Assembly (NCBI GenBank): GCA_021513695.1
Contig: CP084166.1
Location: 2,048,001 to 2,112,000, forward strand
Origin: Candidatus Heimdallarchaeum aukensis
Lineage (GTDB): Archaea; Asgardarchaeota; Heimdallarchaeia; Heimdallarchaeales; Heimdallarchaeaceae
Reading direction: 5' to 3'
DNA length: 64,000 nucleotides
The position numbers and the translations under genes are program-made. Positions within the stretch are counted from its first letter, which is position 1; every line of letters begins with the position of its first letter. The notes beneath the pieces were generated by a model that ran no database searches, had not been told where the DNA came from, and was given only the letters and a program-made list of their open reading frames with translations. This document shows positions 1-64,000 of the stretch, in pieces.

Positions 1-1
1 T

Positions 2-3000
2 TTAGTAGGTGTAGGAGAGAGTACAGAGCAGTATATTGCTACAATCAGCAGAGAAGAAAAAACGATTACTTATTCCGCTATTCTAAGTTCAGCAGAGGAG
101 CAAGAACAGTGGAAATATTTCTATATTAGCCTTTATCAGCTTGCGAGACATATTCCTAAAGAATTACTTGTAGATAATTATTCAAATGGAAATAAAGAGG
201 TTGATCTATTAGATGAAAATTACCCTGTTTCTGGTATAATTTCTGATGCAAAAATGGTCGTTAATTATGAAGGTTCATATGTGGAAAAAATCATCCAATT
301 AGAAAAAGGAGCAAATCAAAATCTATACATTTCTGACTTGAAATCTACAATTACTAACATCCATAGCGCATATCCTTACGAAAATGCTTTATCTTCTTTG
401 CCTGAGGAAATAAAATGGAAAAAATATGATGTTCCATTTGATGGGTATATTCCTCTTGATAATGTCTATCTTGATGATTTTGACGGTAGTTCGTATTATA
501 TCTACGATGTAGTGGTTTATGTTGATGCTTCCACTTATTCTAAAGTACATTTAACAGTTGAAACTGAGGGATCTTTTGTTCTTTCTAACCGCTACTCTAT
601 AATATTACAAAAGATGGGTTTTTCAAACGAAGTTGTTTCTACAGTCTTTAGCGCACAACAAGGATATACTCCCTTGTATCTTCACGTTGTTTTTCCAAAA
701 ACAGCTTTTAATCAGAATATACGCATTCAATACATCTCCAATGGAGGAGTGGCTATAAGTGCTGAAAACAATAGAGAAGGAGATGCCATATCAGAGTGGT
801 TGATCTCTACTCCTTTCTATTCGGAAAAAAATGAGGACACCGTTGATTATCTTAATTTTATTTCACAAGTTACACCTATGGAAGGAGAGCGATTCGAAAA
901 AAGAGTAGTAGATTCAGAAGGATTTACCCACACAGAAACAATAGAATTTTCTGAATTCACTTTTCCTGGATTTTGTCCTATCTTAGACTTTGTTCCTCAT
1001 GCTGTTCCTTCAGGTTATTCTGTTATTCTCACTACTACGCTCGATTTCGCCAAAAGTTTGAACACTTCCTTAGTTCTACTTCTAAACAAAGAAAGTGGCA
1101 TAACAATACAATCCTTACTTTGGGATGAGACTCCACTTCTTTACATCAATGAAGGAGTATTTAACGAAATTGACTCCGATTTGGAAAATGGTATGATTAC
1201 TATACCTTTGAATAGTGAAGGGTTAACTGTCAACAGTCTCTTTTCTCCTAAAGAAAACAACCCTAATGAGTATGGTTTCATAGAAAACGACCCTGATTAT
1301 AACTTTCATTTTTCATCTTCTGACCCTTATAGTATAAAAACATCCTCTGTTAACCCTGATTCTGTTATTTTGAACAACAAAGGCATTCACAGAATAGTTA
1401 TCCAATTAACCTTTCCTTCTCCTTATAATACAGATTTTGGAATATATTTGGAAAATGTAGATGATAGCGTGCGAACTGTTTTATCTCCCTCAGATAAAGC
1501 AATAGACTTTCATGCAATCGCACAGAAGAACTTTATTCAATTTGAAAACGATCTTCATCAACCTCAAACTCTTGCTCAATTAGAGAAAAACGAGAATACT
1601 TTATTTAAATCACGATATTTCAAAGATGACTATGGTCAATACCATTCCTATAGAATTTATAGTCTTGGCTTTTCTGATGAATACACCTTAGATAAAGGAA
1701 AGAAATGGAAAATATATGATGGTGATACTGATGATTCTAACGATGTTATCTATGAAAGTACAGCTCACTACAATTGGAAACATGTAATAGGAAAGATGAA
1801 TTTTGCAATTGTTATAGATGAAGGAACTCCACAAGTTTTGCAATTGCCTTTTAATTTTCTAGTAGGTTACATGGTCTTTTGTGATTGGCTAGATACAAAT
1901 GGAGATGGATTAGAAGATACATGTGCTCCTTATATAGGTCTAGCAGACCCCTTAGATGCTAGTTCTACTTACGATGATGTAAAAAAAGGTGTAGTGTATA
2001 ATACAGAGGAAGAGAAGAAAATAAGTTATGATGTTACTGATGAACAACAAGCAGAACTCAAGAATCTTACTGTACGCCAATCGTTGATATCTTCTCTTTC
2101 AACTACAGTAATTACAAAAACAGAAGAAACCATCCCCTTATCCTACACTTCTGACGAAATAGCTGCTATTCAAAACAATGGATTAACTCTTGATCGTTAT
2201 CTTCATTCTTTAATAGAAAATGACTATTTGACCTACTCTGAAGATATTGCAAGAGTAGAAATAACTATTAGTTCTTCAAATAATAAAGAAATTGACCTTG
2301 CTTATGATTATGATAAAGAAATATTGTTCACCCACAGTGTTGATAATGCTACAGGAGAAGAAGAAAAAATAGTCTATGATTTTAGATATGACTGTTTTTC
2401 TGTCCTCACTCCTGATGCTCTTGCTAACGACAACTACAGAGTAGATTTTTATACTTTTAATAATAAACTAAGTCTCTATGATACCGATTTGTATAAACTT
2501 AAAGAAACGCCTAATTCTTACGGATTGTTAGATGATCCACAAACTCTTTCACCTATGGTAGTCTTAGAAAATTATAACTATGAAATAAAAGAAACAGTTA
2601 ATAGTCTTGATTCAAAAGATGAAGAAATTTTAAACAATAGTCCAACAACAATTGTAGACGCTTTTGTTCAAGGATTAAGTCTTTCTCAACTAAGCGTGGA
2701 AATGTATGATGCTGAAATAGAGATGGATTATTACAGTTTAGATCTCTTCTATTCTGTTTTCTTTAATGAATATTTGACTCTACAACAATTCTTCTATTCT
2801 CAAGAAACATTAAATAACAACCAGAATTATCAGTATTATCCTACTGGGACAATCCAATTTGCTAAATGGATTAGTTCAATACTTAACTCCTATATAATCC
2901 AACAATCAGACAAATTATTTGATGAATACCAAAACCGTACTTCTCGATATGATTCAGAGAAAAAAGCTATAGCTGCTATGTCCTTTTTGTTAGACCTTAT

Positions 3001-8664: not shown

Positions 8665-8768
8665 TGGTGCGTCAACCGGGAATTGAACCCGGGCCGTCGA
8701 ATCTCTTCTTGAGGCTTCTAGACGCCATATAATGGAAGTCCGACGTACTACCACTATACTATTGACGC
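8665..8768 (-). tRNA. tRNA-Gly(UCC) with ~30-nt intron at the canonical 37/38 site, CCA encoded
   Basis: Hand-folded cloverleaf. Acceptor GCGTCAA/TTGACGC, D arm GTAT-AGTGGTA-GTAC, anticodon stem TCGGA/TTCGA with loop CT-TCC-A, T arm CCGGG-TTCAATT-CCCGG, then ACCA. Length is 104 nt, so about 30 nt is inserted after position 37. Confidence 0.85.
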
Positions 8769-13434: not shown

Positions 13435-15549
13435 GTGACTAAGCTTGAAAAACTATTAAGGCCTGAAAGCGTAGTAATTATTGGCGCTTCTTCTGATGAA
13501 AAGAAAGTTGGTTATGCAGCATTAAAAAATATGATTGATTGTGGGTTCAAAGGAAGGTTATATGCTGTTAATCCCAAAGCTGAACGCTATAATTATGAAA
13601 TTTTGGGTGTCAAGTGTTATTCTCGTGTAAGCGATATCGAAGATACAATTGATCTAGCAGTAATTTGCATTCCTGCACGGTTTATTCCTGCAACTATTGA
13701 AGAATTAGGTGGAAAGAAAGTCCCATATGTTGCTGTAATAACTGCTGGTTTTAAAGAAGTTGGAGAAGAAGGAGCAAAACTTGAAAAGGAACTAGTTGAA
13801 CTTGTGAAAAAATACAACATGAGAATGGTAGGGCCGAATATTTTAGGTATAATAGATACTATTGCACCTATAAATGCAAGTTTTGCAGAACAAACTCCAA
13901 TAAGAGGAGATATTGCATTTATATCCCAAAGTGGAGCTCTTTTAACGGGTATTCTAGATTGGAGTAGAGCAGAGGGAATAGGCTTCTCATCTTTTATAAG
14001 TATAGGTAATAAAGCAGATCTGGACGCAACAGACTTTATTGAAGCTTTAGGTGAGGATAAGCATACAAAAGCAATATTGGCTTATTTGGAAAGTATAAAT
14101 CGAGGGGAAGAATTCATTAAGATTTGTTCTGAAGTAACGAGGACAAAACCTGTCCTTATTATTAAATCAGGAAGATCAAAAGCTGGAGCAAAGGCAGCAT
14201 CTTCACACACAGGAAGTATGGCTGGTGCAGATACAACTTATGATGTTGCTTTTGAAAAATGTGGTGTAATAAGAGCTGATGATGCTGAAGAATTGTTTGA
14301 TATGGCATTTTCATTCAGTTGTATGCCTATACCAAAAGGAAATAGAATAGTAATAATTACTAATGCTGGTGGACCTGGAATTCTGGCAACTGATGCTGCC
14401 GAAAGAGAAGGGTTAGAATTAGCAGAGATATCCCCCGAGTTTGAGGCAAAATTAAGAGAATTTCTACCTCCTGCATCAAGTTTCAAAAATCCGATAGATG
14501 CCTTAGGAACAGCACAAGGAGAGGATTATGGACGGATAATAGAACTAGCATGTAAAGAAGAAAATATAGATGGAATAGTCGTTATTTTAACGCCACAAGC
14601 TATGACCGAAGGACAAGAAACTGCAGAAAGAATTGTGGAGATGCATGAAAAATATCCTGAAAAACCTATCATTGCAGTTTTTATAGGGGGAGAATCATTA
14701 GGCCCCGCAATATATTATTTGAAGAAACACAAAATACCCACATTTACACTTCCAGAGAGAGGGGTTGGAGCTATGGCCGCTATGGCAAGATATGCTAAAA
14801 TAAAAAACAGGCCAGAAGATGAACCTATACCTGAAATAGAAGTAGATAAACAGAGAGTAGAAGAAATATTCAAGAAAGTAAGGGCTGAAGGTAGAAAAAC
14901 GTTATATGGCACAGAAGCAAAAGAAGTGGTAAAGGTATATGGAATAACTACTCCTGCGGCTAAATTAGCAAAAACAAGCGATGAAGCTAAACAAATCGCT
15001 AAAGAACTAGGTTTCCCTGTAGTTATGAAGATAACAGGGGAAGGAATTATGCATAAAAGTGACATCGGAGGAGTAAAAGTAGGTATAAAAAATGAAGAAG
15101 AAGTAGAAAAAGCTTTTACTGAAATAATGGAAAATGTAAAGAAACATTATCCAAACGCAGAAAGCCTAATAGAAGTGCAATATATGGCTCCTCTAGGAAG
15201 AGAATTAATAACAGGAATATTACAAGATCCTCAATTTGGTCCACTAGTAATGATAGGATTAGGAGGAATATATACCAACTTCCTTAAAGATGCAGCTTTC
15301 GGTTTAGCTCCACTAAGCTACAAAGAAGCTGAAATTGTGTTAAGAAAAACAAAATCTTACACATTGTTAAAAGGAGTAAGAGGAGAAAAACCTTCAGATA
15401 TAAAGGCAATAGTTGACACTATGGTGAAAATATCACTGCTTGCAAGAGATTTCAAAAACGATATTAAAGAGATGGACGTAAACCCATTCTTCGCTTATGA
15501 AGAAGGAAAAGGAATCTCAGCAGTAGATGTAAAAATAGTACTTAATTAA
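13435..15549 (+). CDS. acd: ADP-forming acetyl-CoA synthetase, fused alpha-beta
   Basis: N-terminal CoA-binding and succinyl-CoA-ligase-like domains (VVIIGASSDEKKVGY, FISQSGAL, SSHTGSMAG) are followed by a C-terminal ATP-grasp domain (FPVVMKI..HKSDIGGV). GTG start. Confidence 0.88.
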   Translation: MTKLEKLLRPESVVIIGASSDEKKVGYAALKNMIDCGFKGRLYAVNPKAERYNYEILGVKCYSRVSDIEDTIDLAVICIPARFIPATIEELGGKKVPYVAVITAGFKEVGEEGAKLEKELVELVKKYNMRMVGPNILGIIDTIAPINASFAEQTPIRGDIAFISQSGALLTGILDWSRAEGIGFSSFISIGNKADLDATDFIEALGEDKHTKAILAYLESINRGEEFIKICSEVTRTKPVLIIKSGRSKAGAKAASSHTGSMAGADTTYDVAFEKCGVIRADDAEELFDMAFSFSCMPIPKGNRIVIITNAGGPGILATDAAEREGLELAEISPEFEAKLREFLPPASSFKNPIDALGTAQGEDYGRIIELACKEENIDGIVVILTPQAMTEGQETAERIVEMHEKYPEKPIIAVFIGGESLGPAIYYLKKHKIPTFTLPERGVGAMAAMARYAKIKNRPEDEPIPEIEVDKQRVEEIFKKVRAEGRKTLYGTEAKEVVKVYGITTPAAKLAKTSDEAKQIAKELGFPVVMKITGEGIMHKSDIGGVKVGIKNEEEVEKAFTEIMENVKKHYPNAESLIEVQYMAPLGRELITGILQDPQFGPLVMIGLGGIYTNFLKDAAFGLAPLSYKEAEIVLRKTKSYTLLKGVRGEKPSDIKAIVDTMVKISLLARDFKNDIKEMDVNPFFAYEEGKGISAVDVKIVLN

Positions 15550-15645
15550 TTAAAATAAAGAATTTTAAATAAATTCTCTTCTTTTTTTGTTTTTTATTTA
15601 TAAAAGCAAATAAATTTTAAATAATACCATAAAAGTAGGAAAAAC

Positions 15646-16335
15646 ATGGTGCTTTTAGAGATTCTTGTACTCCTTGTAGGATATATCTGTGGCTCGATTC
15701 CCGTAGGTTTCTTAATAGGAAAAATAGGTTATAATATTGATGTAAGAAAACATGGTAGTGGAAATATAGGAATGGCAAATGTAATGCGTCTATGCGGAAA
15801 AAAAGCAGGAATAATGACAATGATAGGTGATATGGTAAAAGGAACAATTGCCGTTCTAAGTGGGAGAATATTAATATGGACAAAAAATTTTGAAGGATTA
15901 GGAAAAATAGGACAAGTAGAATTAACAAATGAAGGGTTATTTCTGTCATTAATAGTCTTTACAACAATAATAGGGCATAGTTTTCCAATATGGTTAAAGT
16001 TTAAAGGAGGGAAATCAGCAAGTGTGGGAGGAGGAGCAATATTAGGAATAAACCCAATAGCATTTGTAATAATAATGAGTTTATGGATTGTTATACTTAA
16101 AAAAACTAAATATACTTCACTTTCAAATTTAGTAGCAGGTATGCTCTATCCTCCATTGTTATGGGTGTTCGCGGGAACTGATCCTTTCTTTAACAACAAT
16201 TGGCAAGCAGCAATAGTAGGAGCAATATGTTTGTTGTTTGTAATCTGGAGACATAGGGAAAATGTGTCAAGGTTAATAAAAGGAACAGAAAGAAAAATTG
16301 GACAAAAAGAAAAAATAGAAGAGAAAAAAGACTAG
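15646..16335 (+). CDS. plsY: PlsY-family glycerol-3-phosphate acyltransferase homologue
   Basis: GSIPVGFLIGK, HGSGNIGMANVMR and GHSFPIWLKFKGGKSASVGGG are the PlsY/YgiH signature blocks. The protein is polytopic membrane. Confidence 0.85.
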   Translation: MVLLEILVLLVGYICGSIPVGFLIGKIGYNIDVRKHGSGNIGMANVMRLCGKKAGIMTMIGDMVKGTIAVLSGRILIWTKNFEGLGKIGQVELTNEGLFLSLIVFTTIIGHSFPIWLKFKGGKSASVGGGAILGINPIAFVIIMSLWIVILKKTKYTSLSNLVAGMLYPPLLWVFAGTDPFFNNNWQAAIVGAICLLFVIWRHRENVSRLIKGTERKIGQKEKIEEKKD

Positions 16336-16431
16336 AATTAAAATAATGGATAGTTTAGTTCTTTTTAAGTTCTTTTTTGAAAAATTGATTTTTCTTATTT
16401 TTTACTGATTAAAAACGTTTTAATTATTGAA

Positions 16432-17178
16432 ATGAGAGAAAAGAATATAATGAAGAGAAAAATCTCAAAGTCAATCAGTGCACTAGAAATCATAGGTATA
16501 ATAATAGTTGCGTCAGCAGCAACAATATTGATAGTAACAAACATTCAACTAGTAAAAGTAGAAGAGATTTTTCTTGAAAAAGAGTACATAAAAGGAGAGA
16601 ATGTGACATTAAAAGTCCAAATAAATAAAAAAATAGAAGAGATCTCAGAAATAGATTATTGTCTGGTGGGGATAAAATCAGAAAATTACTCTTATGAGGG
16701 AGTGTTCAAAGCAAACATAGAAAAAATAGAAATAGATAATTTAAAAACAAAAAGAACAAACATCACAGTATCATTAAAACCATTAATTAAAAATGAAAAT
16801 GGATATTATGCATTAAACGTAGGAAATTATGAAATAGAAAGCCTAGAGTTAAAAATAGGAAGAAAAATAATCAAGCATAGATTAAATGCAAATTTCGTTA
16901 TAAAACATGGAGAAGAGGAAGAAAGAATAAAAAATGGAAATTTTGAACAAGAAGGAGATTATTGGATAATAGAATACAATAAAGAAAAATTTACACTAAA
17001 TTTTAAAGAAAATGAGTATACAGATGGAAAAGCACTAATCTTAAGAAAAAATGAGGAAAAGACAGAAACAAATCAAACATCTATATTGACTATGACACAG
17101 AAAATTAAACTAAAAGATATACACTACCTAGAAATGGATGTAAAAGTAATAAGTGAAAATGAGAGTAAAGTAAATTAA
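16432..17178 (+). CDS. pilin-like (class III signal peptide) secreted protein, probable 5' part of a frameshifted gene
   Basis: The N-terminus KRKISKSISALEIIGIIIVASAATILIV resembles an archaeal type IV pilin signal. The C-terminal IKNGNFEQEGDYW looks like the start of a jelly-roll/CBM-like domain that is cut off by the stop codon. Confidence 0.6.
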   Translation: MREKNIMKRKISKSISALEIIGIIIVASAATILIVTNIQLVKVEEIFLEKEYIKGENVTLKVQINKKIEEISEIDYCLVGIKSENYSYEGVFKANIEKIEIDNLKTKRTNITVSLKPLIKNENGYYALNVGNYEIESLELKIGRKIIKHRLNANFVIKHGEEEERIKNGNFEQEGDYWIIEYNKEKFTLNFKENEYTDGKALILRKNEEKTETNQTSILTMTQKIKLKDIHYLEMDVKVISENESKVN

Positions 17179-17180
17179 GT

Positions 17181-18032: not shown

Positions 18033-18200
18033 AAATAAAGAAAAAAGACAAAAGAAGCAATGGGTGGGAAAAAGAAAAATTGTAACTATCAGAAAGCGAA
18101 AACTTTAATTAATAATTTGGAAGCAGTAATCCGTCAATAAAAAGAAAAAATTGACAAAAAAGAAAAAAGAAAAATGGCAAAAACGCCCACTAAAAGCGCT

Positions 18201-18277
18201 GGCGGGGTAGTCTAGCTTGGTATGGCCCCTGGTTTGGGACCAGGTGATCAGGAGTTCAAGTCTCCTCTCCGCCACCA
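18201..18277 (+). tRNA. tRNA-Pro(UGG), CCA encoded
   Basis: Acceptor GGCGGGG/CTCCGCC, anticodon arm CCTGG-TTTGGGA-CCAGG, T arm GGAGTTCAAGTCTCC, then ACCA. Confidence 0.9.
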
Positions 18278-20095: not shown

Positions 20096-20098
20096 ATC

Positions 20099-44419: not shown

Positions 44420-44557
44420 TTTTTCTTTTTTTTTACACTATAATCAAAAAATAATTCTCCTTTTTTTATTCTTCTAAACTTTTTGTATTGCCTAGTGGGG
44501 AAATTTTTTAATAACGAATAAATCAATCATAGTATAGTATATCTTTTAGGTGTTAGT

Positions 44558-46220: not shown

Positions 46221-46280
46221 GTTCCCATCTTTTATTTCTTTTTTTAAAAATAGTTGCTTTTTTAACTTCATTGATTGCTC

Positions 46281-46319
46281 GATAGTGATAGTGCTGATAG
46301 TGATAGTGATAGTGATAGC
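46281..46319. repeat. GATAGT hexamer array (2 + 4 copies)
   Basis: GATAGTGATAGTgctGATAGTGATAGTGATAGTGATAGC, lying between two convergent genes. Confidence 0.85.
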
Positions 46320-46467
46320 ACTTTTTAAACCAAAATCGAAATGTTTTGAGAAAAAAGTTATTTAAATTAATTTAAGGTTAGTCCTAAAAAAACATACTGA
46401 CAGCTTTTTCGATTATCAACCAAGGATAGAATTTTCTAAATGGGGTGTTTTCTTTTTTTATGGTTTT

Positions 46468-47064
46468 TTATTCTGTATTGCTTTCGCCCATGGCCGCACT
46501 TAAAATTTCTACTTCCTGAGCTACGGACTTGATTTTAGAAGCGATAACTCTCTTCTTTTCTATTTCTTCTTGATCTTTAAGCTCTGGGAGATACTTTCCT
46601 ATAGCCGCAGTTGTTCGTATTCTTACACTATAAGGAAAAATGGTTTTATTACGACTTTTAAGTTCAGCAAGGATGCCCACGGTCCAACGTTCATTCTCTT
46701 CATCTTTGTGAATGTGAAATTTTGTTACATCAACATCACACAGGTTAAGAATTGATGAAAGAAAAGTTTCTATATCCTCATTATTAAATTGACTAATATC
46801 TAAAATCTCTCCTTTTTCAAATTCTTCTTCATGAAAATTGTATATCTGTTTTTTATCATGTATCTGTGAAAAGCGTTTATCTCTCTCGGTTCTTTTTTTA
46901 GCTGGTTGCTTTTTTCCTGTTTCATACTTATTTCTGTTACGAGCGACCCAAACACTAACAGCTTTTCCTGAACCAAGACCTATAATGGGAGCGATTTCTG
47001 AGTATGTATATCCTTGTTTTTTTAGCTCTTCTATCTTATTCCATCGCTCTTGACCTTGTAACAT
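46468..47064 (-). CDS. helix-turn-helix DNA-binding protein, family unknown
   Basis: The N-terminal KKQGYTYSEIAPIIGLGSGKAVSVWVARNR is a typical HTH. The rest is unassigned. Confidence 0.6.
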   Translation of the reverse strand: MLQGQERWNKIEELKKQGYTYSEIAPIIGLGSGKAVSVWVARNRNKYETGKKQPAKKRTERDKRFSQIHDKKQIYNFHEEEFEKGEILDISQFNNEDIETFLSSILNLCDVDVTKFHIHKDEENERWTVGILAELKSRNKTIFPYSVRIRTTAAIGKYLPELKDQEEIEKKRVIASKIKSVAQEVEILSAAMGESNTE

Positions 47065-47110
47065 TATTTTTCATCTTTTTTGGTTTTTTTATTTAGACTA
47101 CCATTCAATT

Positions 47111-47137
47111 ACTATCATTTTTTGATAGTGCTATCAC
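47111..47137. promoter_or_regulatory. operator-like inverted repeats of the TGATAG(T) motif upstream of the HTH gene
   Basis: ACTATCA-ttttt-TGATAGT-g-CTATCAC lies 47-73 nt upstream of the start codon at 47064. Confidence 0.4.
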
Positions 47138-47626
47138 TTTCATATAACATTTTACTTGCAACTATAAAAATTTTTACTAGTTAATAAAATCCTTGCGCAT
47201 AGTATTAGGCTTTTTGTCGGAATATTTTATATATGTCTAGCTAAAGCTACCTAGGCTGCTTCTAAGTTTACATATACTATGACTGTTTGATATTATCCCT
47301 TAAATTCAAGATTTGAATGTTAGTTAAAATGAAATTCTAAATCTTAGTTAATAACGTTGTATTATAAATAGACAAAATAAGCAAAAATAGACCTTTATAA
47401 TCTATATTTTAACCAATTAATCTAAATTCGTTTTGTTATACGTTTAATTATATTATTCCAAGTTTTCTATAACGCCTATTTCTCGATGAAAGTTAAATAT
47501 TAAACGTAAAAGGACTTTTATTATTAGGCTTTTAATGTAGACTTTTTACTTTTTTGAAAGGAGAAATAATTAAAAAGATGTTACAAACCTATTCTCTATT
47601 AGGAGGTAATTTACATACAGGTAAGT

Positions 47627-48622
47627 TTGGCTATCTTATCTGGTGGTGATTCGAAGCGTTATAAGCAGAAAGGTAAACTTATAGATAAAGCATTAATGGA
47701 AGTAAATACCAAGCCTCTGCTTTTTAAAATAGTTGAAGATGGTCTTAATAATTACGACAATGTTATTGTATCCCTGAACAACAATAAAAGGAAAAAAAAG
47801 TATGAAAGTGTATTAAAACCCCTACTGAAAAGCGATAATGTTGAGTTTGTTGAAGATGATAAAGAAATTAATTTTATTGGAGTAGGAAAGGGAATTGCTT
47901 CTGTACTATTGAAATTATTGCCAAAAACTTCAATCCAATTCATTCCTTGTGATCGCCCTTACCTTGATGTGAAATTACTAAGACAGTTAGAGACAGTAAA
48001 AGAGGGAGTAACAATACTTATTTATCAAAGTGGATTGATTGAGCCACTGCTTGCTCTATATGCTGAAAACTATGCATTTCCTCCACTCTTTGTTTTTTCT
48101 TTTGATCTAAGCAGAGCTGACGTGTTTATCCGCTTAGCTCCTCGAATCAGGCTTTATAATGCAACAGAAATAATTGAGATGAATGATCTCAGATCTAGTT
48201 TTTTCTTAAATGTAAACACTCCAAGGTTAACAGCTTCAGACCTCTCTTTAGAAAAAGAGAAATATTTCTTACCAAAATCTAAAATTGTGGAAAGAAAAAA
48301 TCTTGAACCTCTTGATAGTATCGATTTAGATGGTGATCCTACAGAGAGAATTCACCATTTGATTGAAAGAGAACACTTTTTTTTAGCATTCTTAGTAACA
48401 AAATACCTATTTCGAAGTCAAGTTTTTGACTTTGACCTCTTTTCTTACTATGTCAACTTAACACTAAAGTCAGAGTACGAATATTGGATGGAGAAAAATA
48501 TACCTTTCTTAGGATTACATGCGCTGCAAGATTTATCACATACTTTTCAGAATAATGTGTCTAATGAAATTGACAATGAAATAAAGACTCTAAAAGAAAA
48601 AATAGGTATAAAAAAGAAATAA
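47627..48622 (+). CDS. MobA-like nucleotidyltransferase domain protein (molybdenum cofactor guanylyltransferase-like) with C-terminal extension
   Basis: The N-terminal AILSGGDSKRYK..DKALMEVNTKPLL resembles the MobA/NTP_transf_3 start. The gene is adjacent to a molybdopterin formate dehydrogenase. TTG start. Confidence 0.55.
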   Translation: MAILSGGDSKRYKQKGKLIDKALMEVNTKPLLFKIVEDGLNNYDNVIVSLNNNKRKKKYESVLKPLLKSDNVEFVEDDKEINFIGVGKGIASVLLKLLPKTSIQFIPCDRPYLDVKLLRQLETVKEGVTILIYQSGLIEPLLALYAENYAFPPLFVFSFDLSRADVFIRLAPRIRLYNATEIIEMNDLRSSFFLNVNTPRLTASDLSLEKEKYFLPKSKIVERKNLEPLDSIDLDGDPTERIHHLIEREHFFLAFLVTKYLFRSQVFDFDLFSYYVNLTLKSEYEYWMEKNIPFLGLHALQDLSHTFQNNVSNEIDNEIKTLKEKIGIKKK

Positions 48623-48663
48623 AGACTCTAAAAGAAAAAATAGGTATAAAAAAGAAATAAAGA
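48581..48663. repeat. 38-bp tandem duplication (2 copies plus 7 nt) spanning a stop codon
   Basis: ATAAAGACTCTAAAAGAAAAAATAGGTATAAAAAAGAA occurs at 48581-48618 and again at 48619-48656, followed by ATAAAGA. Confidence 0.85.
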
Positions 48664-51375
48664 TTATTCTTTTGTCACTTTTACCGCACAGACTTTAAGT
48701 TCTGGTATTTTTGCAAGAGGATCAAGTGCATCATTTGTTAAGAGGTTAGCAGCTGATTCTTTAAAGTGGAAAGTCATAAAAACAACTCCTTCTTTAATTT
48801 TGTCAGTGACTTTTACTTCTGTTAGTAGTTTACCTCTCCTTGATTCAATGATTACTTTGTCACCCGTTTTTATTCCTAATCTTTTTGCATCTTTGACGTT
48901 TATTTCACTTCTTTCAATTGGTTTACGTTGGTGTATTCCTTCTACCCTACGTGTCATTTCTCCCGTATGGAAATGGAATAAATTGCGACCCGTAGTTAGA
49001 ATTAGGGGATATTCATCATCAGGAAGCTCATCTGGATCCAAGTAATCAATGGCATGGAATTTTCCTTTCCCTCTAGAGAATTTATCCTTATGTAAAATTG
49101 GAGTACCAGGATGGTCATCAGATGGACATGGCCACTGTAAACCTCCATTTTCTACTCTCTTATAACTTATTCCTCCATAGATTGGGGTCACCTGAGCTAT
49201 TTCATCCATTATTTCACTGGGAGAGTTATAGTGTTTTTCAATTCCAAAACGATTAAGCATAATCTCTAAGATTTTCCAATCAGGTAATCTGCTTCCATCT
49301 GTTTCTATAGCTTTTCTAACTCTCTGTACCCTTCTTTCAGTATTGGTGTAAGTACCATCTTTTTCTGCAAATGATTGTCCAGGGAGAATAACATCTGCAT
49401 ATTTTGCAGTTTCAGTAATAAATAAATCTTGAACAACTAAGAACTCCACCTTCTCAAGAGCTTCTCTAACATGGTTAATATTTGGGTCGCTAATAACAGG
49501 ATTTTCACCCATGATGTAGATCCCTCTAATGTTTCCTTTATGGGCTTCGTTCATTATTTCAACAACAGTCAACCCCGCTTTGTCATCAAGTTTATCTACT
49601 CCCCAGAACTCTTTGAATTTCTTGATGTTTTTTTCATCAGTTACTTTTTGATAACCTGGGAAAACATCAGGTAAACCACCTAGATCACAAGCTCCTTGAA
49701 CATTGTTTTGACCACGTAGTGGATTAACTCCAGTACCTGGTTTTCCAACATTTCCAGTTAACATAGCCAAATTAGCTAAACTTAGAACATTATCTGTCCC
49801 AGTAGTATGTTGAGTAATACCCATGGCATAAACTATAGCAGCAGTTTTTGCAGTAGCGTAAAGTGAAGCAGCTTTTTTCACATCTTCCTCATCAACATTC
49901 GCAATCTTACACAGTGAAGAAAAGTCTATCTTACTTATCTTTTCTTTCAATTTCTCAAAGTCTTCTGTCCTATTCTCAATAAACTCTTTATCATATAATT
50001 CTTCGTCAATAATGTACTTAATCATAGCATTAATGAGGGCAACATCGCTACCTGGTCTCTGAGACATATAAATTTCAGCATAATCTGCTAATTCAATTCT
50101 ACGAGGATCTGCAACAATCAATTTTGTTTTGCCTTTTCTAACAGCTTGCTTAATTTTTATTCCTATTACGGGATGCGCCTCTGTTGTATTGCTCCCAATA
50201 ATAAATATAACTTCAGCATTATTAGTTAAATCTGAGACACTGTTTGTCATTGCTCCTGAACCAAAAGCTTTGACAAGTCCTGTGACTGTTGAGGCATGAC
50301 AAAGTCGAGCACAGTGGTCAACGTTATTCGTTCCAATAGCTGCACGGGAAAGTTTTTGCATCAGATAATTCTCTTCATTTGTACATTTAGCAGAAGTAAG
50401 GAAAGCAAGAGAATCAGGGCCCGTTTCACTGATAATTTCCTTAAATCGTTTTTCAATAAGATCGAAAGCTTCTTCCCAGCTTACCTCTACGAAATTTCCA
50501 TTTTTCTTGATTAGTGGAGTATTCACTCTATCATGATGATGGACATATTCCCACCCATATCTCCCTTTTACACAAAGTGACAATCCATTAATACTATCTC
50601 TATGTGATTGGACATCTACGATTCTATTTTGTTTTGGATCAACCAATAGTTCTAGTTGACAACCAACTCCACAGTAGGTACATGTTGTTACTGTTTTCTT
50701 TAATTCATAAGACCGACTTTTTGTAGTTTTGATAGATTTGCTAACTAATGCTCCAACTGGACAGACTTCTACACAGTTCCCACAAGCAACACAACCTGCT
50801 TCTTCAAAACTTCTACCAAAACCAGCACTAGGATAGATGTCAAAACCTCTGTCTTGCATGGAAAGAACATTACATACTTGTATCTCATCTGTAACACGAA
50901 CACAAAGCTGACAACGGATACAGGCGGAATAATTGAGTACAAAAAATTCATTCACTTCTACTAGGTCTGTAGTTGGTTTTTTACCCTCTAGTTTACTTAA
51001 GCGGCTCTTTGGAACATACTGATAGGCTAGTTTTTGTAGAGTGCAAACACCATTTTTATTACACACTATACAGTTTAATGGGTGAGAACGAAGAAGTAAT
51101 TCAATATTAGTTTGACGAGCACGATGAATTCGTTCATTATAGGTGGTAACCACCGCATTAGGACGAACAGGTGTAACACAAGCGGCAACTAAATTAGGAG
51201 CTCCTTCAACTTCAATAACACAAATACGACAAGCACCAGACGGTTTTAATTCTTCCATATGACACAAAGTAGGGATCTCTATTCCAGCACGAGTGATAGC
51301 TGAAAGATATGTGTCATCCTTTTTACATAAGATTTTTTGACCATCAACAATAATAGAAATTTTTTCTTCTGACAT
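48664..51375 (-). CDS. fdhA: formate dehydrogenase alpha subunit (molybdo/tungstopterin, NuoG-like Fe-S N-terminus), Cys type
   Basis: N-terminal 2Fe-2S and 4Fe-4S cysteine motifs, then the molybdopterin oxidoreductase domains. The active-site stretch HCARLCHAST has Cys rather than an in-frame TGA. Confidence 0.88.
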   Translation of the reverse strand: MSEEKISIIVDGQKILCKKDDTYLSAITRAGIEIPTLCHMEELKPSGACRICVIEVEGAPNLVAACVTPVRPNAVVTTYNERIHRARQTNIELLLRSHPLNCIVCNKNGVCTLQKLAYQYVPKSRLSKLEGKKPTTDLVEVNEFFVLNYSACIRCQLCVRVTDEIQVCNVLSMQDRGFDIYPSAGFGRSFEEAGCVACGNCVEVCPVGALVSKSIKTTKSRSYELKKTVTTCTYCGVGCQLELLVDPKQNRIVDVQSHRDSINGLSLCVKGRYGWEYVHHHDRVNTPLIKKNGNFVEVSWEEAFDLIEKRFKEIISETGPDSLAFLTSAKCTNEENYLMQKLSRAAIGTNNVDHCARLCHASTVTGLVKAFGSGAMTNSVSDLTNNAEVIFIIGSNTTEAHPVIGIKIKQAVRKGKTKLIVADPRRIELADYAEIYMSQRPGSDVALINAMIKYIIDEELYDKEFIENRTEDFEKLKEKISKIDFSSLCKIANVDEEDVKKAASLYATAKTAAIVYAMGITQHTTGTDNVLSLANLAMLTGNVGKPGTGVNPLRGQNNVQGACDLGGLPDVFPGYQKVTDEKNIKKFKEFWGVDKLDDKAGLTVVEIMNEAHKGNIRGIYIMGENPVISDPNINHVREALEKVEFLVVQDLFITETAKYADVILPGQSFAEKDGTYTNTERRVQRVRKAIETDGSRLPDWKILEIMLNRFGIEKHYNSPSEIMDEIAQVTPIYGGISYKRVENGGLQWPCPSDDHPGTPILHKDKFSRGKGKFHAIDYLDPDELPDDEYPLILTTGRNLFHFHTGEMTRRVEGIHQRKPIERSEINVKDAKRLGIKTGDKVIIESRRGKLLTEVKVTDKIKEGVVFMTFHFKESAANLLTNDALDPLAKIPELKVCAVKVTKE

Positions 51376-51376: not shown

Positions 51377-53317
51377 TTAATTCACCTTCTCAATTGCTTT
51401 CTTTGGACAACGCTCAAAACATGCATTGCAAGAGATACATAGACGATTCTCAATGAAAAAACCCGTCTCCTTAGAACCAAAAACAGCATCAACTGGGCAA
51501 ACATTTTGGCACACACCACATTTAATGCAAAGGTCATCATTAATAACATAATTGAATAATCCTGGACAAACCTTTGCTCGACATACTTTTTGTTCAATGT
51601 GCTCAATATATTCTTCTCTGAAGTATTTAAGAGTAGACAAAATAGGATTAGGAGCCGTTTGACCTAAGCCACAGAGAGCAGTATCTTTGATAACAAATGA
51701 TAATTGCTCTAAATCAGTAAGAATGTCTAGTGTAGCATCACCAGATGTGATTTTCTCAAGCATTTCTAATGCGCGAACTGTTCCTTCTCGACAAGGAGTG
51801 CATTTTCCACAAGATTCAGATGCGATAAATGTCATAAAATAACGAGCTAAATCAACCATACAAGTGGACTCACTACAGACAATCATGCCTCCGGACCCCA
51901 TAATAGAACCAAGTTTCTTAAGAGAAGCAAAGTCAACTGGTGTATCAATTAGCGAAAAAGGAATACAACCACCAGAAGGACCCCCTGTCTGAACTGCTTT
52001 AAACTGTTTATCCCCTTTGACACCGCCACCGATATCGAAAATGATTTCACGAAGAGTTGTACCCATAGGAACTTCAACTAAACCAGAATTTTTAACATCC
52101 CCAGTAAGAGCAAAAACAGCTGTACCTTTAGTGTCCTCTGTTCCAATGCTACTAAACCATTTAGCGCCATTAAGAAGAATAACAGGAACTGTGACAAGAG
52201 TCTTGACATTGTTGATAATTGTTGGTTTTTCCCATAATCCGGAAACAGCAGGATAAGGAGGACGGGGGCGAGGTTCACCACGTAATCCCATTATAGAATT
52301 TATTAAAGCTGTTTCTTCTCCACAAACAAAAGCACCAGCTCCTTTTCTGATTTCAATAGAAAAATGAAAATCAGTACCAAAGATGTTATCTCCAAGAAAA
52401 TGGTTTTCGTAAGCTTGTTTTAGTGCAATCTCTAAACGCTTAATAGCAAGTGGATATTCAGCTCGGATGTAAATAAATCCCTTATTTGCTCCAATGGCAT
52501 ACGCAGCAATAGTCAATCCTTCAATTACACTATGAGGGTCTCCTTCAATCAAAGATCTGTCCATGAAAGCTCCAGGGTCGCCTTCATCAGCATTGCAGAC
52601 AACATATTTTTCAGTTTTTTCAATACTATCCTCGGTCGTTTTTGAAAGTTCTGCATTATATGCAAATTCCCATTTCACGCCAGTGGGAAAACCAGCACCA
52701 CCACGACCACGAAGGCCAGAAGATTTGATTTCATCAATAACCTCTTTGGGAGAAAGAGTAGTTAGAGTTTTGTAAAGGGCTTGGTAGCCACCTCTAGCAA
52801 GGTAATCGTTGATGTTTTCAGGGTCAATTATCCCAACATTTCTTAACGTTATTCTCTTTTGTTTCTTTAACATTGGCAAGGATTTGAAAGTTGGTAGTCC
52901 AGAGTAAATCTGTGGAATATTATATTTCCATGACTCTTGGTATTGAATAATATTTTCTTGTTCATCAAACATGCAGAAAACTTTTTCTTTTTTGAGATCT
53001 CCTCCAAAGTGTTTATCTATTATTTCTTTTACTTCTTCAGGCTTAACATTTTTATAAGAAACTCTGGGTGAGTTAGCTAGTTCAATATCCATTAAAGGCT
53101 CATAAGAACAACAACCTATACATCCTGTTTTTTCTATAATGACATCGTCTATTTTTAACTCATGAAGCACTTGTTGCACTTCTTTCAGAACTTCTTCTGC
53201 ACCTGCAGCAATACCACAAGTCCCATAGCCTATAATAATCCTATTTTTATTATGCTTCTCCTTGCTATGTAAAATCGCTTCTTCAGTTATATAATGAAAA
53301 TGATTGGATTTATTCAT
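51377..53317 (-). CDS. NuoF/HydB-like NAD(P)H-binding flavoprotein subunit with N-terminal thioredoxin-like and C-terminal 2x[4Fe-4S] domains
   Basis: GLRGRGGAGFPTG (FMN/NAD site), ESCGKCTPCREG, and C-terminal CIKCGVCQNVCP and CISCNACFERCP. Confidence 0.88.
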   Translation of the reverse strand: MNKSNHFHYITEEAILHSKEKHNKNRIIIGYGTCGIAAGAEEVLKEVQQVLHELKIDDVIIEKTGCIGCCSYEPLMDIELANSPRVSYKNVKPEEVKEIIDKHFGGDLKKEKVFCMFDEQENIIQYQESWKYNIPQIYSGLPTFKSLPMLKKQKRITLRNVGIIDPENINDYLARGGYQALYKTLTTLSPKEVIDEIKSSGLRGRGGAGFPTGVKWEFAYNAELSKTTEDSIEKTEKYVVCNADEGDPGAFMDRSLIEGDPHSVIEGLTIAAYAIGANKGFIYIRAEYPLAIKRLEIALKQAYENHFLGDNIFGTDFHFSIEIRKGAGAFVCGEETALINSIMGLRGEPRPRPPYPAVSGLWEKPTIINNVKTLVTVPVILLNGAKWFSSIGTEDTKGTAVFALTGDVKNSGLVEVPMGTTLREIIFDIGGGVKGDKQFKAVQTGGPSGGCIPFSLIDTPVDFASLKKLGSIMGSGGMIVCSESTCMVDLARYFMTFIASESCGKCTPCREGTVRALEMLEKITSGDATLDILTDLEQLSFVIKDTALCGLGQTAPNPILSTLKYFREEYIEHIEQKVCRAKVCPGLFNYVINDDLCIKCGVCQNVCPVDAVFGSKETGFFIENRLCISCNACFERCPKKAIEKVN

Positions 53318-54887: not shown

Positions 54888-54965
54888 TGGTGGGGTAGAC
54901 AGGATTTGAACCTGTGACATCCTCCACGTCAAGGAGGTATCATAGCCGGGCTAGATCACTACCCC
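54888..54965 (-). tRNA. tRNA-Val(GAC), CCA encoded
   Basis: Acceptor GGGGTAG/CTACCCC, anticodon arm CCTCC-TTGACGT-GGAGG, T arm ACAGG-TTCAAAT-CCTGT, then ACCA. Confidence 0.9.
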
Positions 54966-62910: not shown

Positions 62911-62987
62911 TGGAGCCCCGGGGGGGACTTGAACCCCCGACCATTTGATTACAAGTCAAACGCTCTACCGAGCTAAGCCACCGAGGC
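62911..62987 (-). tRNA. tRNA-Thr(UGU), CCA encoded
   Basis: Acceptor GCCTCGG/CCGGGGC, anticodon arm TTTGA-CTTGTAA-TCAAA, T arm GGGGG-TTCAAGT-CCCCC, then TCCA. Confidence 0.88.
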
Positions 62988-63407: not shown

Positions 63408-63722
63408 ATGATGACTACAATCGCACAAGCCCAAGAAAAATTACTTGAACTCATTCATAGTAGAAATAGTATAAAGCAGACTGACACCGTTCGTATCCCC
63501 AAGCTTCCCAGTAGGATAATTGGTGAAAGAATGCTAGATGCTTTTGCCAATCAAATCCAAAATGATGTTGAAGGTTTAGAATCAGATCCATATATTGAAG
63601 ATGAATTAGTTGAAAGTTTATTAAGCACTTTAGCTTTAGCAGGGCTTGTTGGTATTGATCTTGAATCAAAATTGGAAGAGATTCTATCTTTAATGGAAAT
63701 TGTAACAGCTGATAGTTCTTAA
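63408..63722 (+). CDS. small all-alpha protein, possibly MazG-like nucleotide pyrophosphohydrolase
   Basis: DELVESLLSTLALAGLVGIDLESKLEEIL resembles the MazG helix pair. The start is uncertain (track 63327, internal ATG 63408). Confidence 0.35.
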   Translation: MMTTIAQAQEKLLELIHSRNSIKQTDTVRIPKLPSRIIGERMLDAFANQIQNDVEGLESDPYIEDELVESLLSTLALAGLVGIDLESKLEEILSLMEIVTADSS

Positions 63723-64000
63723 ATAACAGTTGCTTGTTTTACTCTTTATATGCCTCTTTTATCTAATTTGTGCTTTTTATTAATACTAGGTACTTTTTTA
63801 TATACCTTCATTTGTGATTCTTTTGAAATGGGGTATTTTGTAACCTTTTCTTACTGATATCTAATTATATTCAATAATTAAAAATATAAACAACCTAAAA
63901 AAATTAAAACTAGAGTATCTAAGAGTGATTTATTCGATGTCTAAATTCAGGAAAAAATGTAATCGCTATTATAAATTTGGCGCTCCTACTATGGCTAAGA

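Follow-up and report, generated by a model that had tools for sequence, protein, structure and literature searches.

A steep strand bias anchored at tRNA genes in the chromosome of an Asgard archaeon

Introduction

Replication usually leaves only faint strand skews, drawn out over whole chromosomes. In the DNA studied here, 64,000 nt of the Asgard archaeon Candidatus Heimdallarchaeum aukensis (CP084166.1, 2,048,001–2,112,000; GCA_021513695.1), hereafter the window, they instead reach up to 0.9 and flip every few kilobases, pinned to tRNA genes. What kind of process writes such a bias, and why does it turn where it does? The host has so far been grown only in enrichment cultures. Heimdallarchaeaceae have been placed phylogenetically closest to eukaryotes in a study that never mentions skew (Wu et al. 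2022, PMC8813620), and our literature searches found no report of such a pattern. The original prediction described blocks of A-rich and T-rich strand; it offered neither an organizing principle, such as anchoring at tRNA genes, nor a mechanism. Here we show that the blocks reflect a lineage-specific, nucleotide-level strand bias anchored at discrete points, and that the strong anchors in the window are tRNA genes.

Results

The skew follows the DNA strand

The main measure was A–T skew on the + strand at fourfold-degenerate third codon positions. Per gene it spans −0.85 to +0.87 in the window. At all sites, the AT skew of 1-kb intervals ranges from −0.58 to +0.47, and GC skew covaries with it, A going with G and T with C. 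Fourfold A/T counts are lopsided in single genes, at 85/7 in 30470–31516, 9/111 in 31897–32835 and 7/73 in the L11 gene (8985–9482). Likelihood segmentation of 5,596 fourfold A/T sites, with splits accepted at 2LLR≥20 (99.9% permutation quantile, 17.7), returned 17 segments, most of whose boundaries lie inside ORFs. The resulting profile is a sawtooth, with slow T-to-A climbs and abrupt A-to-T falls on the + strand, and contains at least eight A-to-T switches with reversals between them in 64 kb.

As originally claimed, the bias belongs to the DNA strand and not to the gene. It continues unbroken across genes of opposite orientation, within ORFs and through spacers, which carry the sign of the flanking blocks. 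The divergent nep1 (−) and MBL (+) genes share an A-rich + strand (+0.74 and +0.85), as had been noticed, and the convergent 19978–22881 (+) and 23013–23708 (−) share a T-rich one (−0.70 and −0.76). The sign therefore does not follow the coding strand, as it would in transcription-associated asymmetry. A gene-orientation term contributes 2dLL 12, compared with 888 for the tRNA term described below.

Switches within single genes had been proposed at several places and fared unequally. That of rbcL was recovered at 33868 (−0.53 to +0.27, P<0.0005; expected near 33450). The giant ORF does switch (−0.24 to +0.34, P<0.0005), at 3916 (about 3.9 kb) and not at 3.5 kb, while acd shows a gradual ramp with no significant step (P=0.18). 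The three-block course described for fdhA and the NuoF-like gene is partly borne out, with a change-point in the fdhA-like gene (P=0.014) and none of significance in the NuoF-like gene (P=0.59). ORF 20128–22881 also contains a change-point (P<0.0005). When each gene was given one free intercept, distance to the tRNA still added 2dLL=111, indicating that the within-gene gradients are real. Flat third-position skew, or boundaries that vanish once amino-acid composition is controlled for, had been named as grounds for abandoning the claim; the skew is not flat along the ORFs and the boundaries persist. Amino-acid composition is ruled out as the cause by the effect at fourfold sites and by orthologues in relatives, whose skew is about 0.

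Three independent assemblies agree, so that a chimera can be set aside. A Logan contig matches the window at 100% over 12,024 bp and a JGI contig is 99.7% identical; together with the same profile in the sister species Ca. H. endolithica PR6, this rules out an assembly artefact.

tRNA genes sit at the abrupt switches

All eight tRNA genes in the window lie at A-to-T drops, and the five strongest drops all have a tRNA (Table 1). The blocks are thus not irregular, as first supposed, but form a sawtooth anchored at tRNA genes. These were detected with Aragorn, Rfam and an Rfam evalue scan, plus reading of the sequence by eye. Two of the eight, both intron-containing, escaped the standard tRNA finders and were located through the skew, which can therefore serve as a search tool.

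Table 1. Anchors, wakes and the flat zone of the window (skew, fourfold A–T skew on the + strand; beta, amplitude fitted per site)
Feature	Coordinates	Strand	Observations
tRNA with intron	8668..8768	−	Rfam 59.3 bits; skew +0.65 in left 1.5 kb, −0.57 in right 1.5 kb; drop 1.22; beta 2.23
tRNA-Pro(TGG)	18201..18277	+	Skew +0.86 left, +0.19 right; beta 2.15
tRNA-like gene, two introns	19651..19797 (approximate)	−	Missed by Aragorn and Rfam; predicted from the switch at ~19.6 kb
tRNA-Leu(TAG)	20000..20084	+	T-richness of the window peaks in its right wake, −0.88 to −0.94
tRNA(CAT) with intron	31608..31730	+	Strongest anchor; skew +0.85 left, −0.80 right; drop 1.65; beta 3.5
tRNA-Ala(GGC)-like, T-arm intron	35025..35133	+	Rfam 22.8 bits, E=0.052, below gathering threshold; sequence reading
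tRNA-Val(GAC)	54888..54965	−	Nearest left 40-site window +0.94; right −0.67 to −0.89; beta 2.2
tRNA-Thr(TGT)	62911..62987	−	Right wake mostly beyond the window
Weaker anchor without tRNA, convergent spacer	22882..23012		Anchor scan beta 1.0, 2dLL 27
Weaker A-to-T switch without tRNA, inside NuoF-like gene	52700..52900		Anchor scan beta 0.83, 2dLL 30
Left wake	14000..18200	.	+ strand ever more A/G-rich, +0.1 to +0.83; five + genes and homopurine spacer 18033–18200
Right wake	20085..24900	.	+ strand T/C-rich, −0.94 to −0.3; one + gene, three − genes
Left wake	27600..31607	.	Skew +0.3 to +1.0; genes oriented +,−,+,−,+
Right wake	31731..33800	.	R15P isomerase gene and 5' part of rbcL; −0.9 to −0.3
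Flat zone	37000..49200	.	Fourfold skew ~0; no tRNA

A model with three parameters, antisymmetric about the tRNAs and decaying exponentially, correlates with the observed profile at r=0.88 with a decay of 2.2 kb. Its 2dLL of 888 compares with at most 335 in 150 random placements. Amplitudes (beta) fitted per site are positive at all eight tRNAs (1.3–3.5), and the upstream and downstream sides are alike (beta 2.39 vs 2.06; lambda 2.23 vs 2.18 kb). We call the strand that runs 5'→3' outward from an anchor, on either side, the away strand. It is T/C-rich on both sides whatever the orientation of the tRNA. Overall, it is driven to T (and C) and its complement to A (and G), near saturation at the anchor and with an e-fold distance of about 2.2 kb. 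Eight sites thus display the abrupt two-sided jump with T>A on the outgoing strand that is expected in origin-centered skew domains. Genes show no orientation bias around the anchors.

The right wake of tRNA-Pro(TGG) is weak because the next anchors truncate it. Among these is the two-intron gene, which Aragorn calls as a tRNA once an insert of ~30 nt in its T-loop is removed; adding this site improved the model (nll 3431.7 to 3423.0). The 35.0-kb drop, which peaks at 35300, is anchored by the tRNA-Ala(GGC)-like gene. Beyond the window, the right flank of tRNA-Thr(TGT) in a same-species contig (L078) is T-rich (−0.3 to −0.5) for ~3.5 kb and then flat. The hidden tRNA at 19.6 kb and this flank are two out-of-sample predictions that came true, and an unsupervised anchor search on L078 returned its two tRNAs. 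A further anchor ~2 kb left of the window is predicted by the model (2dLL ~15). Exact-protein look-ups returned nothing for the giant ORF or for two ABC ATPase genes on the right; the giant ORF has one homologue and no match in metagenomes. Besides the tRNA itself, no motif shared around the anchors was found, including any conserved origin-like motif.

Wakes cross zero near the midpoints of short inter-anchor intervals. Inside rbcL, the wake to the right of tRNA(CAT) runs into the one on the left of the following anchor. To the left of tRNA(CAT), the wake takes in 27285–27950, the TyrRS-like and AsnC-like (29280–29513) genes, nep1 and MBL, together with homopurine spacers at 30326–30469 and 31517–31607. 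Across the 35–55 kb interval the bias decays within 2–5 kb and then stays at zero over a 12-kb plateau; an Rfam evalue scan found no tRNA in 36900–48700.

The bias reaches every class of site

On the away strand, A at fourfold sites is down about 3-fold and G about 2-fold, and T rises from ~0.4 to 0.74; C stands at 0.11 and G at 0.04–0.05. Twofold sites shift as well, with T/(T+C) at 0.81–0.84 vs 0.72 and A/(A+G) at 0.63–0.67 vs 0.78, both graded near > mid > far from the anchor. A graded excess of C→T and A→G, as on a strand exposed in single-stranded form, is thereby present at twofold sites. First-position skew and the purine content of positions 1+2 track fourfold skew (Spearman 0.92 and 0.82), and codon and residue usage moves with it (Arg AGR 0.25 vs 0.87; Ile ATA 0.17 vs 0.73; Lys 6.8% vs 11.7%). 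Since the bias acts on fourfold, twofold and first positions and on spacers, it determines which synonymous dialect a gene segment uses and pulls protein composition along, whatever the orientation or expression of the gene. Ribosomal-protein genes occur in all three flavors (L11 −0.82, LX −0.20, L37e +0.81), and in L37e, LSM and MBL the bias opposes the direction in which the gene itself is transcribed. Outward RNAs, if made, would contain 38 runs of T≥5 (oligo-U terminators) in 5.4 kb. T-runs and A-runs match the expectation of synonymous shuffling, which rules out selection for or against oligo-T terminators.

Close relatives share the bias and show that it is maintained

The sequence covered comprised the 64-kb window and ~9 kb more from this species, together with 21 kb from PR6 and 18 kb from a Heimdallarchaeaceae relative, L080. 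PR6 has the same skew amplitude at 94% identity, including the tRNA(CAT) site and its profile (L003, 8589–8712). L080 has a sawtooth too. There the main switch falls within an intact ABC ATPase gene where no tRNA is present, and one of the tRNAs lacks a wake, so that the tRNA itself is not strictly required. At this intragenic switch, no embedded conserved element and no recombination junction were found. The sawtooth is absent in 25 other Heimdallarchaeota and unrelated taxa, though tRNA positions are conserved. The other Heimdallarchaeota give a weak positive tRNA-anchored signal (beta up to +0.54) that cannot be claimed, because it does not exceed the null distribution given by unrelated taxa (SD 0.29, range −0.58 to +0.76). 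Within 100 bp of tRNAs, they have the same polarity.

Fourfold divergence to PR6 is 0.07–0.09 in the wakes and 0.173 in flat DNA. This halving of synonymous divergence indicates that the bias is not hypermutation. The wakes hold 14 A/T differences; local hypermutation (extra A→T mutation) predicts 72 (P=9e-17) and a decaying relic ~42, and both are rejected. If strand exposure has a fixed direction near anchors and a random one elsewhere, ~23 are predicted, or ~15 after rate scaling. In flat regions the mutation spectrum equals that of relatives (A<>T share 0.28 vs 0.18–0.36), which rules out that a novel mutational process acts across the genome. The bias is still being actively maintained, and the wakes are not regions of added mutation.

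Discussion

The pattern fits no known mechanism. Our tentative preference is for a fixed outward polarity of some DNA transaction that would start at the anchors and resemble replication-fork polarity. Such a transaction would start repeatedly and run outward both ways for a few kilobases, its direction being fixed near the anchors and random far away. The away strand would be the exposed or lagging-template strand and would gather the outcomes of single-strand lesions (purine loss read as T, C→T, A→G) while its complement is protected, giving a fork-polarity profile with origin-like switch points. Candidate sources at tRNA genes are local origin-like, R-loop-primed or restart-type DNA synthesis, which may be superimposed on chromosome replication that elsewhere has no net direction. 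T>A on the strand leaving a switch point is the polarity of origins in bacteria, yeast and human, which supports outward synthesis. So do the single-strand damage signature on the away strand and the finding that mutations are redistributed, not added. Three other processes were rejected because, judged by strand geometry, each would give the wrong polarity: nick translation, the termination of forks at tRNAs, and double-strand-break resection in which the tails are damaged. Twin-domain supercoiling was rejected as well, as it is not two-fold symmetric whereas both side amplitudes are equal.

Several observations count against outward synthesis. To our knowledge, A/T ratios of 12:1 to 35:1 are far above any documented replication asymmetry, with only mitochondrial DNA coming close. 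The fall to zero within ~5 kb, followed by the long plateau, does not look like a linear inter-origin profile. To produce it, random initiation would have to be very dense, or synthesis short and abortive, and abortive synthesis alone would not be expected to fix mutations. The away strand is poor in G, in contrast to the leading strands of bacteria, and the lack of both an origin-like motif flanking the tRNAs and a gene-orientation bias round the anchors points the same way. The intragenic switch and the wakeless tRNA of L080 also weigh against it. The bolder proposal, in which tRNA genes and a few other sites would be fixed bidirectional start points of DNA synthesis in Heimdallarchaeaceae (origin-like, R-loop- or recombination-primed), with no net fork direction elsewhere and a dense-initiation or origin-independent mode of replication, seems rather doubtful.

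A fixation bias accounts for the divergence data just as well. Chromosome copies might recombine or undergo gene conversion, starting at fragile or targeted sites, usually tRNA genes (favored integration sites in the genus) and occasionally others, and spreading ~2 kb, with strand- and base-specific heteroduplex repair preferentially fixing T on the away strand. Such a process would be the strand-asymmetric counterpart of GC-biased gene conversion. We know of no strand-asymmetric biased gene conversion, and from the mismatch preferences of archaeal EndoMS/NucS one would expect the away strand to be rich in G+T, whereas it is rich in C+T. In standard double-strand-break resection it is the toward strand that becomes exposed, so that versions based on damage give the wrong polarity, and the match to a single-strand damage signature would be a coincidence. 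The explanation does account for the ~2.2 kb exponential decay, which resembles conversion-tract lengths, for easily reached near-saturation, for effects on every site class and for anchors that can be intragenic and can move between lineages. It also predicts reduced wake divergence, a uniform S=1.8 giving 25 A/T differences (~17 rate-scaled) against the 14 observed, and tRNA genes of these genomes are reported as integration sites of many elements (Wu et al. 2022, PMC8813620). We regard it as somewhat unlikely.

Read-through and divergent transcripts from very strong tRNA promoters would make the away strand the non-template on both sides, where it could be damaged, or the template preferentially repaired by transcription-coupled repair. 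The polarity fits, the non-template strand being T-rich, and a two-sided asymmetry that decays over kilobases is also known from the sites where human transcription starts. If purine loss were suppressed on the protected strand, 11.6 A/T differences would be expected, near the observed number, and the polarity within 100 bp of tRNAs in other Heimdallarchaeota agrees. This outward transcription is nevertheless unlikely. Ordinary transcription leaves nearly no mark, as the small orientation term, the scatter among ribosomal-protein genes and the genes biased against their own transcription attest. Amplitudes are equal up- and downstream of the tRNA, the outward RNAs would be packed with oligo-U terminators, and some anchors lie within genes or in a convergent spacer.

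Direct selection on purine/pyrimidine asymmetry for a physical function (promoter insulation, R-loop control, structure-free single strands or translocase guidance) would account for near-saturation, lowered synonymous divergence and identical amplitude in two species at 94% identity. It is quite improbable. Runs of T and A at shuffle expectation imply that no motif or terminator is selected, distorted protein composition is a cost, relatives with the same tRNA positions manage without the bias, and we know of no function that needs every site over kilobases.

A mosaic or artefact, whether a chimeric assembly, islands acquired horizontally at tRNA genes or a classical replication skew that inversions have scrambled, is refuted for the bulk of the pattern and very improbable. 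tRNA genes are classical integration sites, and the giant ORF beside a tRNA may belong to a mobile element. Against this stand the concordant assemblies, the shared profile in PR6 and the wake genes, which are core genes and not foreign genes absent in relatives (R15P isomerase, RuBisCO, nep1 and a radical-SAM gene have orthologues in 13–25 related loci). Inversions cannot make switches inside intact genes, and reverse complementation leaves the sawtooth unchanged. Two translational codon dialects tied to expression (NNT codons/GNN tRNAs and NNA codons/UNN tRNAs) would suit the T-type L11, RuBisCO and R15P isomerase genes but can hardly hold, being refuted by spacers that share the bias, a sign that follows the DNA strand across opposite orientations, gradients within genes, ribosomal proteins in all classes and orthologues elsewhere with almost no skew.

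Whatever its cause, the skew breaks the assumptions of codon-usage-based predictors of expression and horizontal transfer. Since stop codons are missing from pyrimidine-rich strands, gene callers are biased too, and phylogenies built from these genomes can be misled. If directional DNA synthesis or repair from tRNA genes is responsible, the initiation sites of an Asgard archaeon can be read off its sequence, which would bear on the origin of eukaryote-like replication and recombination. Under dense initiation, a near-saturated fork-polarity map would be readable from any assembled genome.

Known systems resemble the pattern in part. In yeast, tRNA genes arrest forks and are, as they may be here, orientation-independent replisome landmarks, but with damage on the lagging template, as usually modeled, arrest or termination should give the reverse polarity, and no compositional footprint was reported there (bioRxiv 10.1101/082008). 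Transcription-associated asymmetry (Szybalski's rule, human gene 5' ends) shares the purine/pyrimidine character and the kilobase-scale decay from a start site, yet follows each gene's transcribed strand, whereas here the orientation of genes does not matter and the bias of some highly expressed genes runs counter to their sense. The original view that neither classical replication skew nor expression-linked codon choice explains the pattern survives testing. Codon choice under translational selection is confined to coding DNA, uniform per gene and correlated with expression, and this bias is none of these. Bacterial and archaeal chirochores likewise show strand-level bias at fourfold and intergenic sites regardless of gene orientation, shifting codon and amino-acid usage; theirs switches only at origin and terminus with a G+T-rich leading strand, whereas here at least eight switches in 64 kb separate purine from pyrimidine and the T-rich strand has C>G. 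The single-strand-exposure gradient of vertebrate mitochondrial DNA is alike in its large amplitude, its grading with distance from an initiation point and its excess of C→T and A→G, and mitochondrial tRNA genes have been proposed as alternative light-strand origins. That DNA is one small replicon with strand-displacement replication and a G+T-rich exposed strand, whereas this is a chromosome with many two-sided wakes in which A→T and G→T dominate. Eukaryotic N-domains and origin skew jumps (human; S. cerevisiae, PMC3459929) share the abrupt switch at fixed sites with T>A on the outgoing strand, the gradual return between sites, reverse-complement invariance and independence of gene orientation. 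Here, however, the amplitude is 10–50 times larger (up to 0.9 at fourfold sites), the spacing is 1.5–20 kb, decay looks exponential to a flat plateau more than linear, C and not G goes with T, and the anchors are tRNA genes, at most candidate origins.

Strand skew along the window

The + strand of the window alternates between A-rich and T-rich states. In 1-kb windows over all sites, AT skew lies between −0.58 and +0.47 and GC skew moves in parallel, so the contrast is one of purines versus pyrimidines. The swings are greater at fourfold-degenerate third positions, which are free of protein-sequence constraint. Likelihood segmentation of 5,596 fourfold A/T sites, in which every split kept had 2LLR ≥20 (99.9% permutation quantile, 17.7), yielded 17 segments with boundaries mostly within ORFs. 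As originally predicted, the flip is real and strand-borne: the + strand course is smooth through oppositely oriented genes, and spacers share the skew sign of the surrounding DNA. Switches had also been predicted inside single genes. Single-gene tests placed change-points in the giant ORF (at 3916) and in rbcL (at 33868), and another within ORF 20128–22881 (P < 0.0005 each). Two further predictions were borne out only in part, since the fdhA-like gene has a change-point (P = 0.014) whereas the NuoF-like gene has no significant step, and acd shows a gradual ramp but no significant step (P = 0.18).

The profile is a sawtooth, in which T-rich DNA climbs slowly to A-rich and then falls abruptly. 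The drop statistic reaches 1.7, while rises are always ≤1.07, and its five peaks lie at 9.0, 19.15, 31.5, 35.3 and 55.05 kb.

Features of the window and of one overlapping contig, with fourfold A/T counts
Feature	Position	Strand	Remark
tRNA gene	8668–8768	−	tRNA searches
tRNA gene	18201–18277	+	tRNA searches
tRNA-like gene, two introns	~19651–19797	−	accepted by Aragorn after removal of ~30-nt T-loop insert
tRNA-Leu gene	20000–20084	+	tRNA searches
tRNA gene	31608–31730	+	tRNA searches
tRNA-Ala-like gene, T-arm intron	35025–35133	+	at 35-kb drop; below Rfam threshold
tRNA gene	54888–54965	−	tRNA searches
tRNA-Thr gene	62911–62987	−	tRNA searches
Giant ORF, 2,795 aa	254–8641	+	directly upstream of tRNA gene 8668–8768
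Eco57I-type N6-adenine methyltransferase/restriction fusion, 785 aa	10327–12684	+	between Spt5 and acd genes
Ribose-1,5-bisphosphate isomerase (IF-2B family), adjoining RuBisCO large-subunit homologue (415 aa)	31897–34276	+	
Operon: molybdopterin formate-dehydrogenase-like, NuoF-like and NuoE-like subunits	48664–53783	−	
Oligopeptide ABC transporter	56672–61749		L080 counterpart, 88–5156
Arf-family small GTPase	61884–62822	+	eukaryote-signature protein
Second, weaker Arf-like gene	L078 (same-species JGI contig) 15906–16505		5 kb downstream
Gene, fourfold A/T 85/7	30470–31516		
Next gene, fourfold A/T 9/111	31897–32835		
Ribosomal protein L11, fourfold A/T 7/73			

The giant ORF has one database homologue, a partial Hodarchaeales protein of 82% identity, and contains a skew bump at 3.9–4.9 kb. 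Its place beside a tRNA gene recalls the 'aloposons', giant genes integrated at tRNA sites (Wu et al. 2022, PMC8813620). The RuBisCO homologue is probably form III; together with the isomerase it makes up the archaeal AMP-salvage pair, and LSM and ribosomal protein L37e genes come after it. The subunits of the minus-strand operon suggest an NAD(P)-linked or electron-bifurcating formate dehydrogenase.

Anchoring at tRNA genes

An A-to-T switch lies at 8/8 tRNA genes, and a tRNA gene at every strong drop. In the flat zone at 36.9–48.7 kb the tRNA search found none. These switch points are called anchors here, and the decaying biased flanks wakes. A residual switch at ~19.6 kb pointed to the two-intron tRNA-like gene. 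Both this gene and the tRNA-Ala-like gene were located via a skew switch and have non-canonical introns; as they stand they are missed by Aragorn and score at or below the Rfam gathering score.

We modeled the skew as antisymmetric around seven tRNAs, with a single amplitude (β), decay length (λ) and intercept. The fit gave β = 2.19 logit units, λ = 2.17 kb and a likelihood gain (2ΔLL) of 888, with r = 0.88 between prediction and observation in 1-kb bins. Random placements among 30 spacers reached at best 335 (n = 150) versus 888 for the tRNAs. The window is rich in tRNA genes, with 8 in its 64 kb. Separate amplitudes were positive at 8/8 sites (1.3–3.5). Taken in the tRNA's own sense, the upstream flank has β 2.39 and λ 2.23 kb, and the downstream flank β 2.06 and λ 2.18 kb. 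A gene-orientation term brought almost no gain in fit, and distance to the tRNA was still worth 2ΔLL = 111 beyond 47 per-gene intercepts. On either side of a tRNA, the T/C-rich strand is the one running 5′→3′ away from it (the away strand). Its fourfold composition is T 0.70–0.74, A 0.12–0.16, C 0.11 and G 0.05 within 1 kb, relaxing to A 0.44 and T 0.37 beyond 6 kb.

An anchor scan also found two weaker, tRNA-less anchors, one in a convergent spacer at ~23.0 kb and one within the NuoF-like gene at ~52.8 kb. For the T-rich DNA that makes up the first 3.9 kb, the best fit calls for an extra anchor, predicted ~2 kb left of the window start (−1500 to −3000; 2ΔLL ~15).

Pressure on nucleotides

The skew pressure targets nucleotides rather than codons, because spacers, twofold sites, six-fold families and amino-acid usage all shift. 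At twofold sites of the away strand, T/(T+C) is 0.81–0.84 versus 0.72 and A/(A+G) is 0.63–0.67 versus 0.78. Six-fold families change box (Arg AGR 0.25 versus 0.87), and amino-acid usage shifts along (Lys 6.8% versus 11.7%; Ser 10.8% versus 4.9%). In 25 other Heimdallarchaeota loci, the fourfold skews of orthologues stay between −0.13 and +0.12, where values here run from −0.85 to +0.63. Relative to orthologues, the first-codon-position shift correlates with the fourfold shift (Spearman 0.92, P = 5e-4), and the purine content of nep1 at positions 1 and 2 is 0.415 versus 0.519. Ribosomal-protein genes span three skew states (L11, −0.82; LX, −0.20; L37e, +0.81), therefore expression is not the driver. 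The numbers of T-runs and A-runs equal the synonymous-shuffle expectation, indicating that the effect acts site by site.

Gene calls were ORF-based, and ORFs are inflated by pyrimidine-rich DNA. Because a pyrimidine-rich strand is without stop codons, ORFs in T-rich wakes may run too long, or else their proteins may have been strongly remodelled. The mechanical ORF start of 19978–22881 (+) overlaps tRNA-Leu, and the first ~400 codons from 20128 are an S/F/L/P-rich low-complexity stretch.

Distribution among relatives

The sequence covered was ~73 kb for the species itself, 21 kb for its sister species Ca. Heimdallarchaeum endolithica PR6 and 18 kb for L080, a MAG of the Heimdallarchaeaceae obtained in the same project. 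Loci taken from relatives are orthologous, not independent. A Logan contig of the species is identical across 12,024 bp. The JGI contig, 99.7% identical, reaches 8.8 kb beyond the window, where the right flank of tRNA-Thr is T-rich as predicted and flat afterwards. An unsupervised anchor search on this contig recovered its two tRNAs. PR6 is collinear with window 22991–44282 at 94% nucleotide identity (RuBisCO, 96% identical), and its profile matches with equal amplitude (β 2.23).

The sawtooth is also present in L080, whose Arf-like GTPase is 70% identical. The strongest A-to-T switch of L080, at ~3350–3400, falls within an ABC ATPase gene that is intact, and the site has neither a tRNA nor a spacer or insertion; across about 50 nt, GGA/GTA/ATA/AGA codons give way to GCT/CGT/GTT/ATT. 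Of the L080 tRNAs, one anchors a weaker switch and another anchors none. In the shared operon (protein identity 82–95%), the synonymous dialects of the two genomes are opposite. The transporter proteins, 82–95% identical across two genera and locally 96–100%, adjoin an Arf-like GTPase that is just 68% identical, and third codon positions of the transporter genes are saturated (identity 0.3–0.5). This may reflect either very strong conservation or an old transfer.

In other Heimdallarchaeota (rbcL 71–85% identical), tRNA positions are conserved, and β ranges from −0.33 to +0.54, which does not exceed the scatter among unrelated taxa (SD 0.29). These loci (L004–L028) have the same polarity, A-rich before and T-rich after the tRNA on the + strand, only within 100 bp (+0.34 ± 0.03, n = 71, non-independent, versus 0.05 in unrelated taxa). 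This short-range polarity may have been the ancestral seed from which kb-scale wakes grew, or may just reflect promoter and terminator signals.

Maintenance and mechanism

Fourfold divergence between the window and PR6 drops from 0.173 in flat DNA to 0.07–0.09 in the wakes, which hold 14 A/T differences. Under approximate equilibrium assumptions, extra A→T mutation on a normal T→A rate predicts 72 (P = 9e-17) and a relic pattern being eroded by symmetric mutation about 42; both were rejected. Suppressed T→A predicts 11.6, uniform fixation bias 25, and a fixed amount of strand-specific damage, confined to one strand close to anchors and free to hit either one elsewhere, about 23. The last two expectations become about 15–17 once the transition rate in wakes, lower by roughly one-third, is allowed for. 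A<>T changes make up 0.28 of all changes in flat DNA, the same as in relatives (0.18–0.36). Together, the divergence counts and this normal share indicate that the bias is kept up today without extra mutation.

The pattern is invariant under reverse complement and equally strong on both sides, which points to one two-fold-symmetric process moving outward from anchors. Single-stranded DNA is prone to depurination, with A-insertion, and to deamination of cytosine and adenine. On the away strand, A and G are lost to T, with C→T and A→G in excess, and we infer that these are the expected outcomes of such lesions. Outward forks would expose the away strand as lagging-strand template, and outward transcription would expose it as non-template strand. 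Given the lesion signature and the strand geometry, outward-polarity models therefore fit best.

Of these, we favour a fork-polarity-like explanation over transcription. A fixation bias with strand asymmetry matches the divergence data no less well. Transcription leaving the anchors, which would make the away strand non-template, is weakened on four points, hence our preference: ordinary transcription is without a mark, ribosomal-protein genes carry a bias that opposes their own sense, a promoter is absent at some anchors, and the RNAs leaving anchors would hold many oligo-U tracts. Inward forks or termination at tRNAs, like double-strand-break resection, would expose the toward strand and were rejected on geometry. 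Fork polarity sits uneasily with the amplitude, with a decay that is short and ends in a flat plateau, with G depletion and with the intragenic anchor of L080.

Comparison with known systems

Full-text literature searches found no description of the pattern, and the genome paper for the genus never mentions skew (Wu et al. 2022, PMC8813620). Its closest counterparts are origin-associated skew jumps with N-domains, bacterial chirochores, the single-strand gradient of mitochondria and transcription-associated asymmetry. It is set apart from each of them by uniting a spacing on the kb scale with near-saturated amplitude, purine/pyrimidine character and anchors at tRNA genes.
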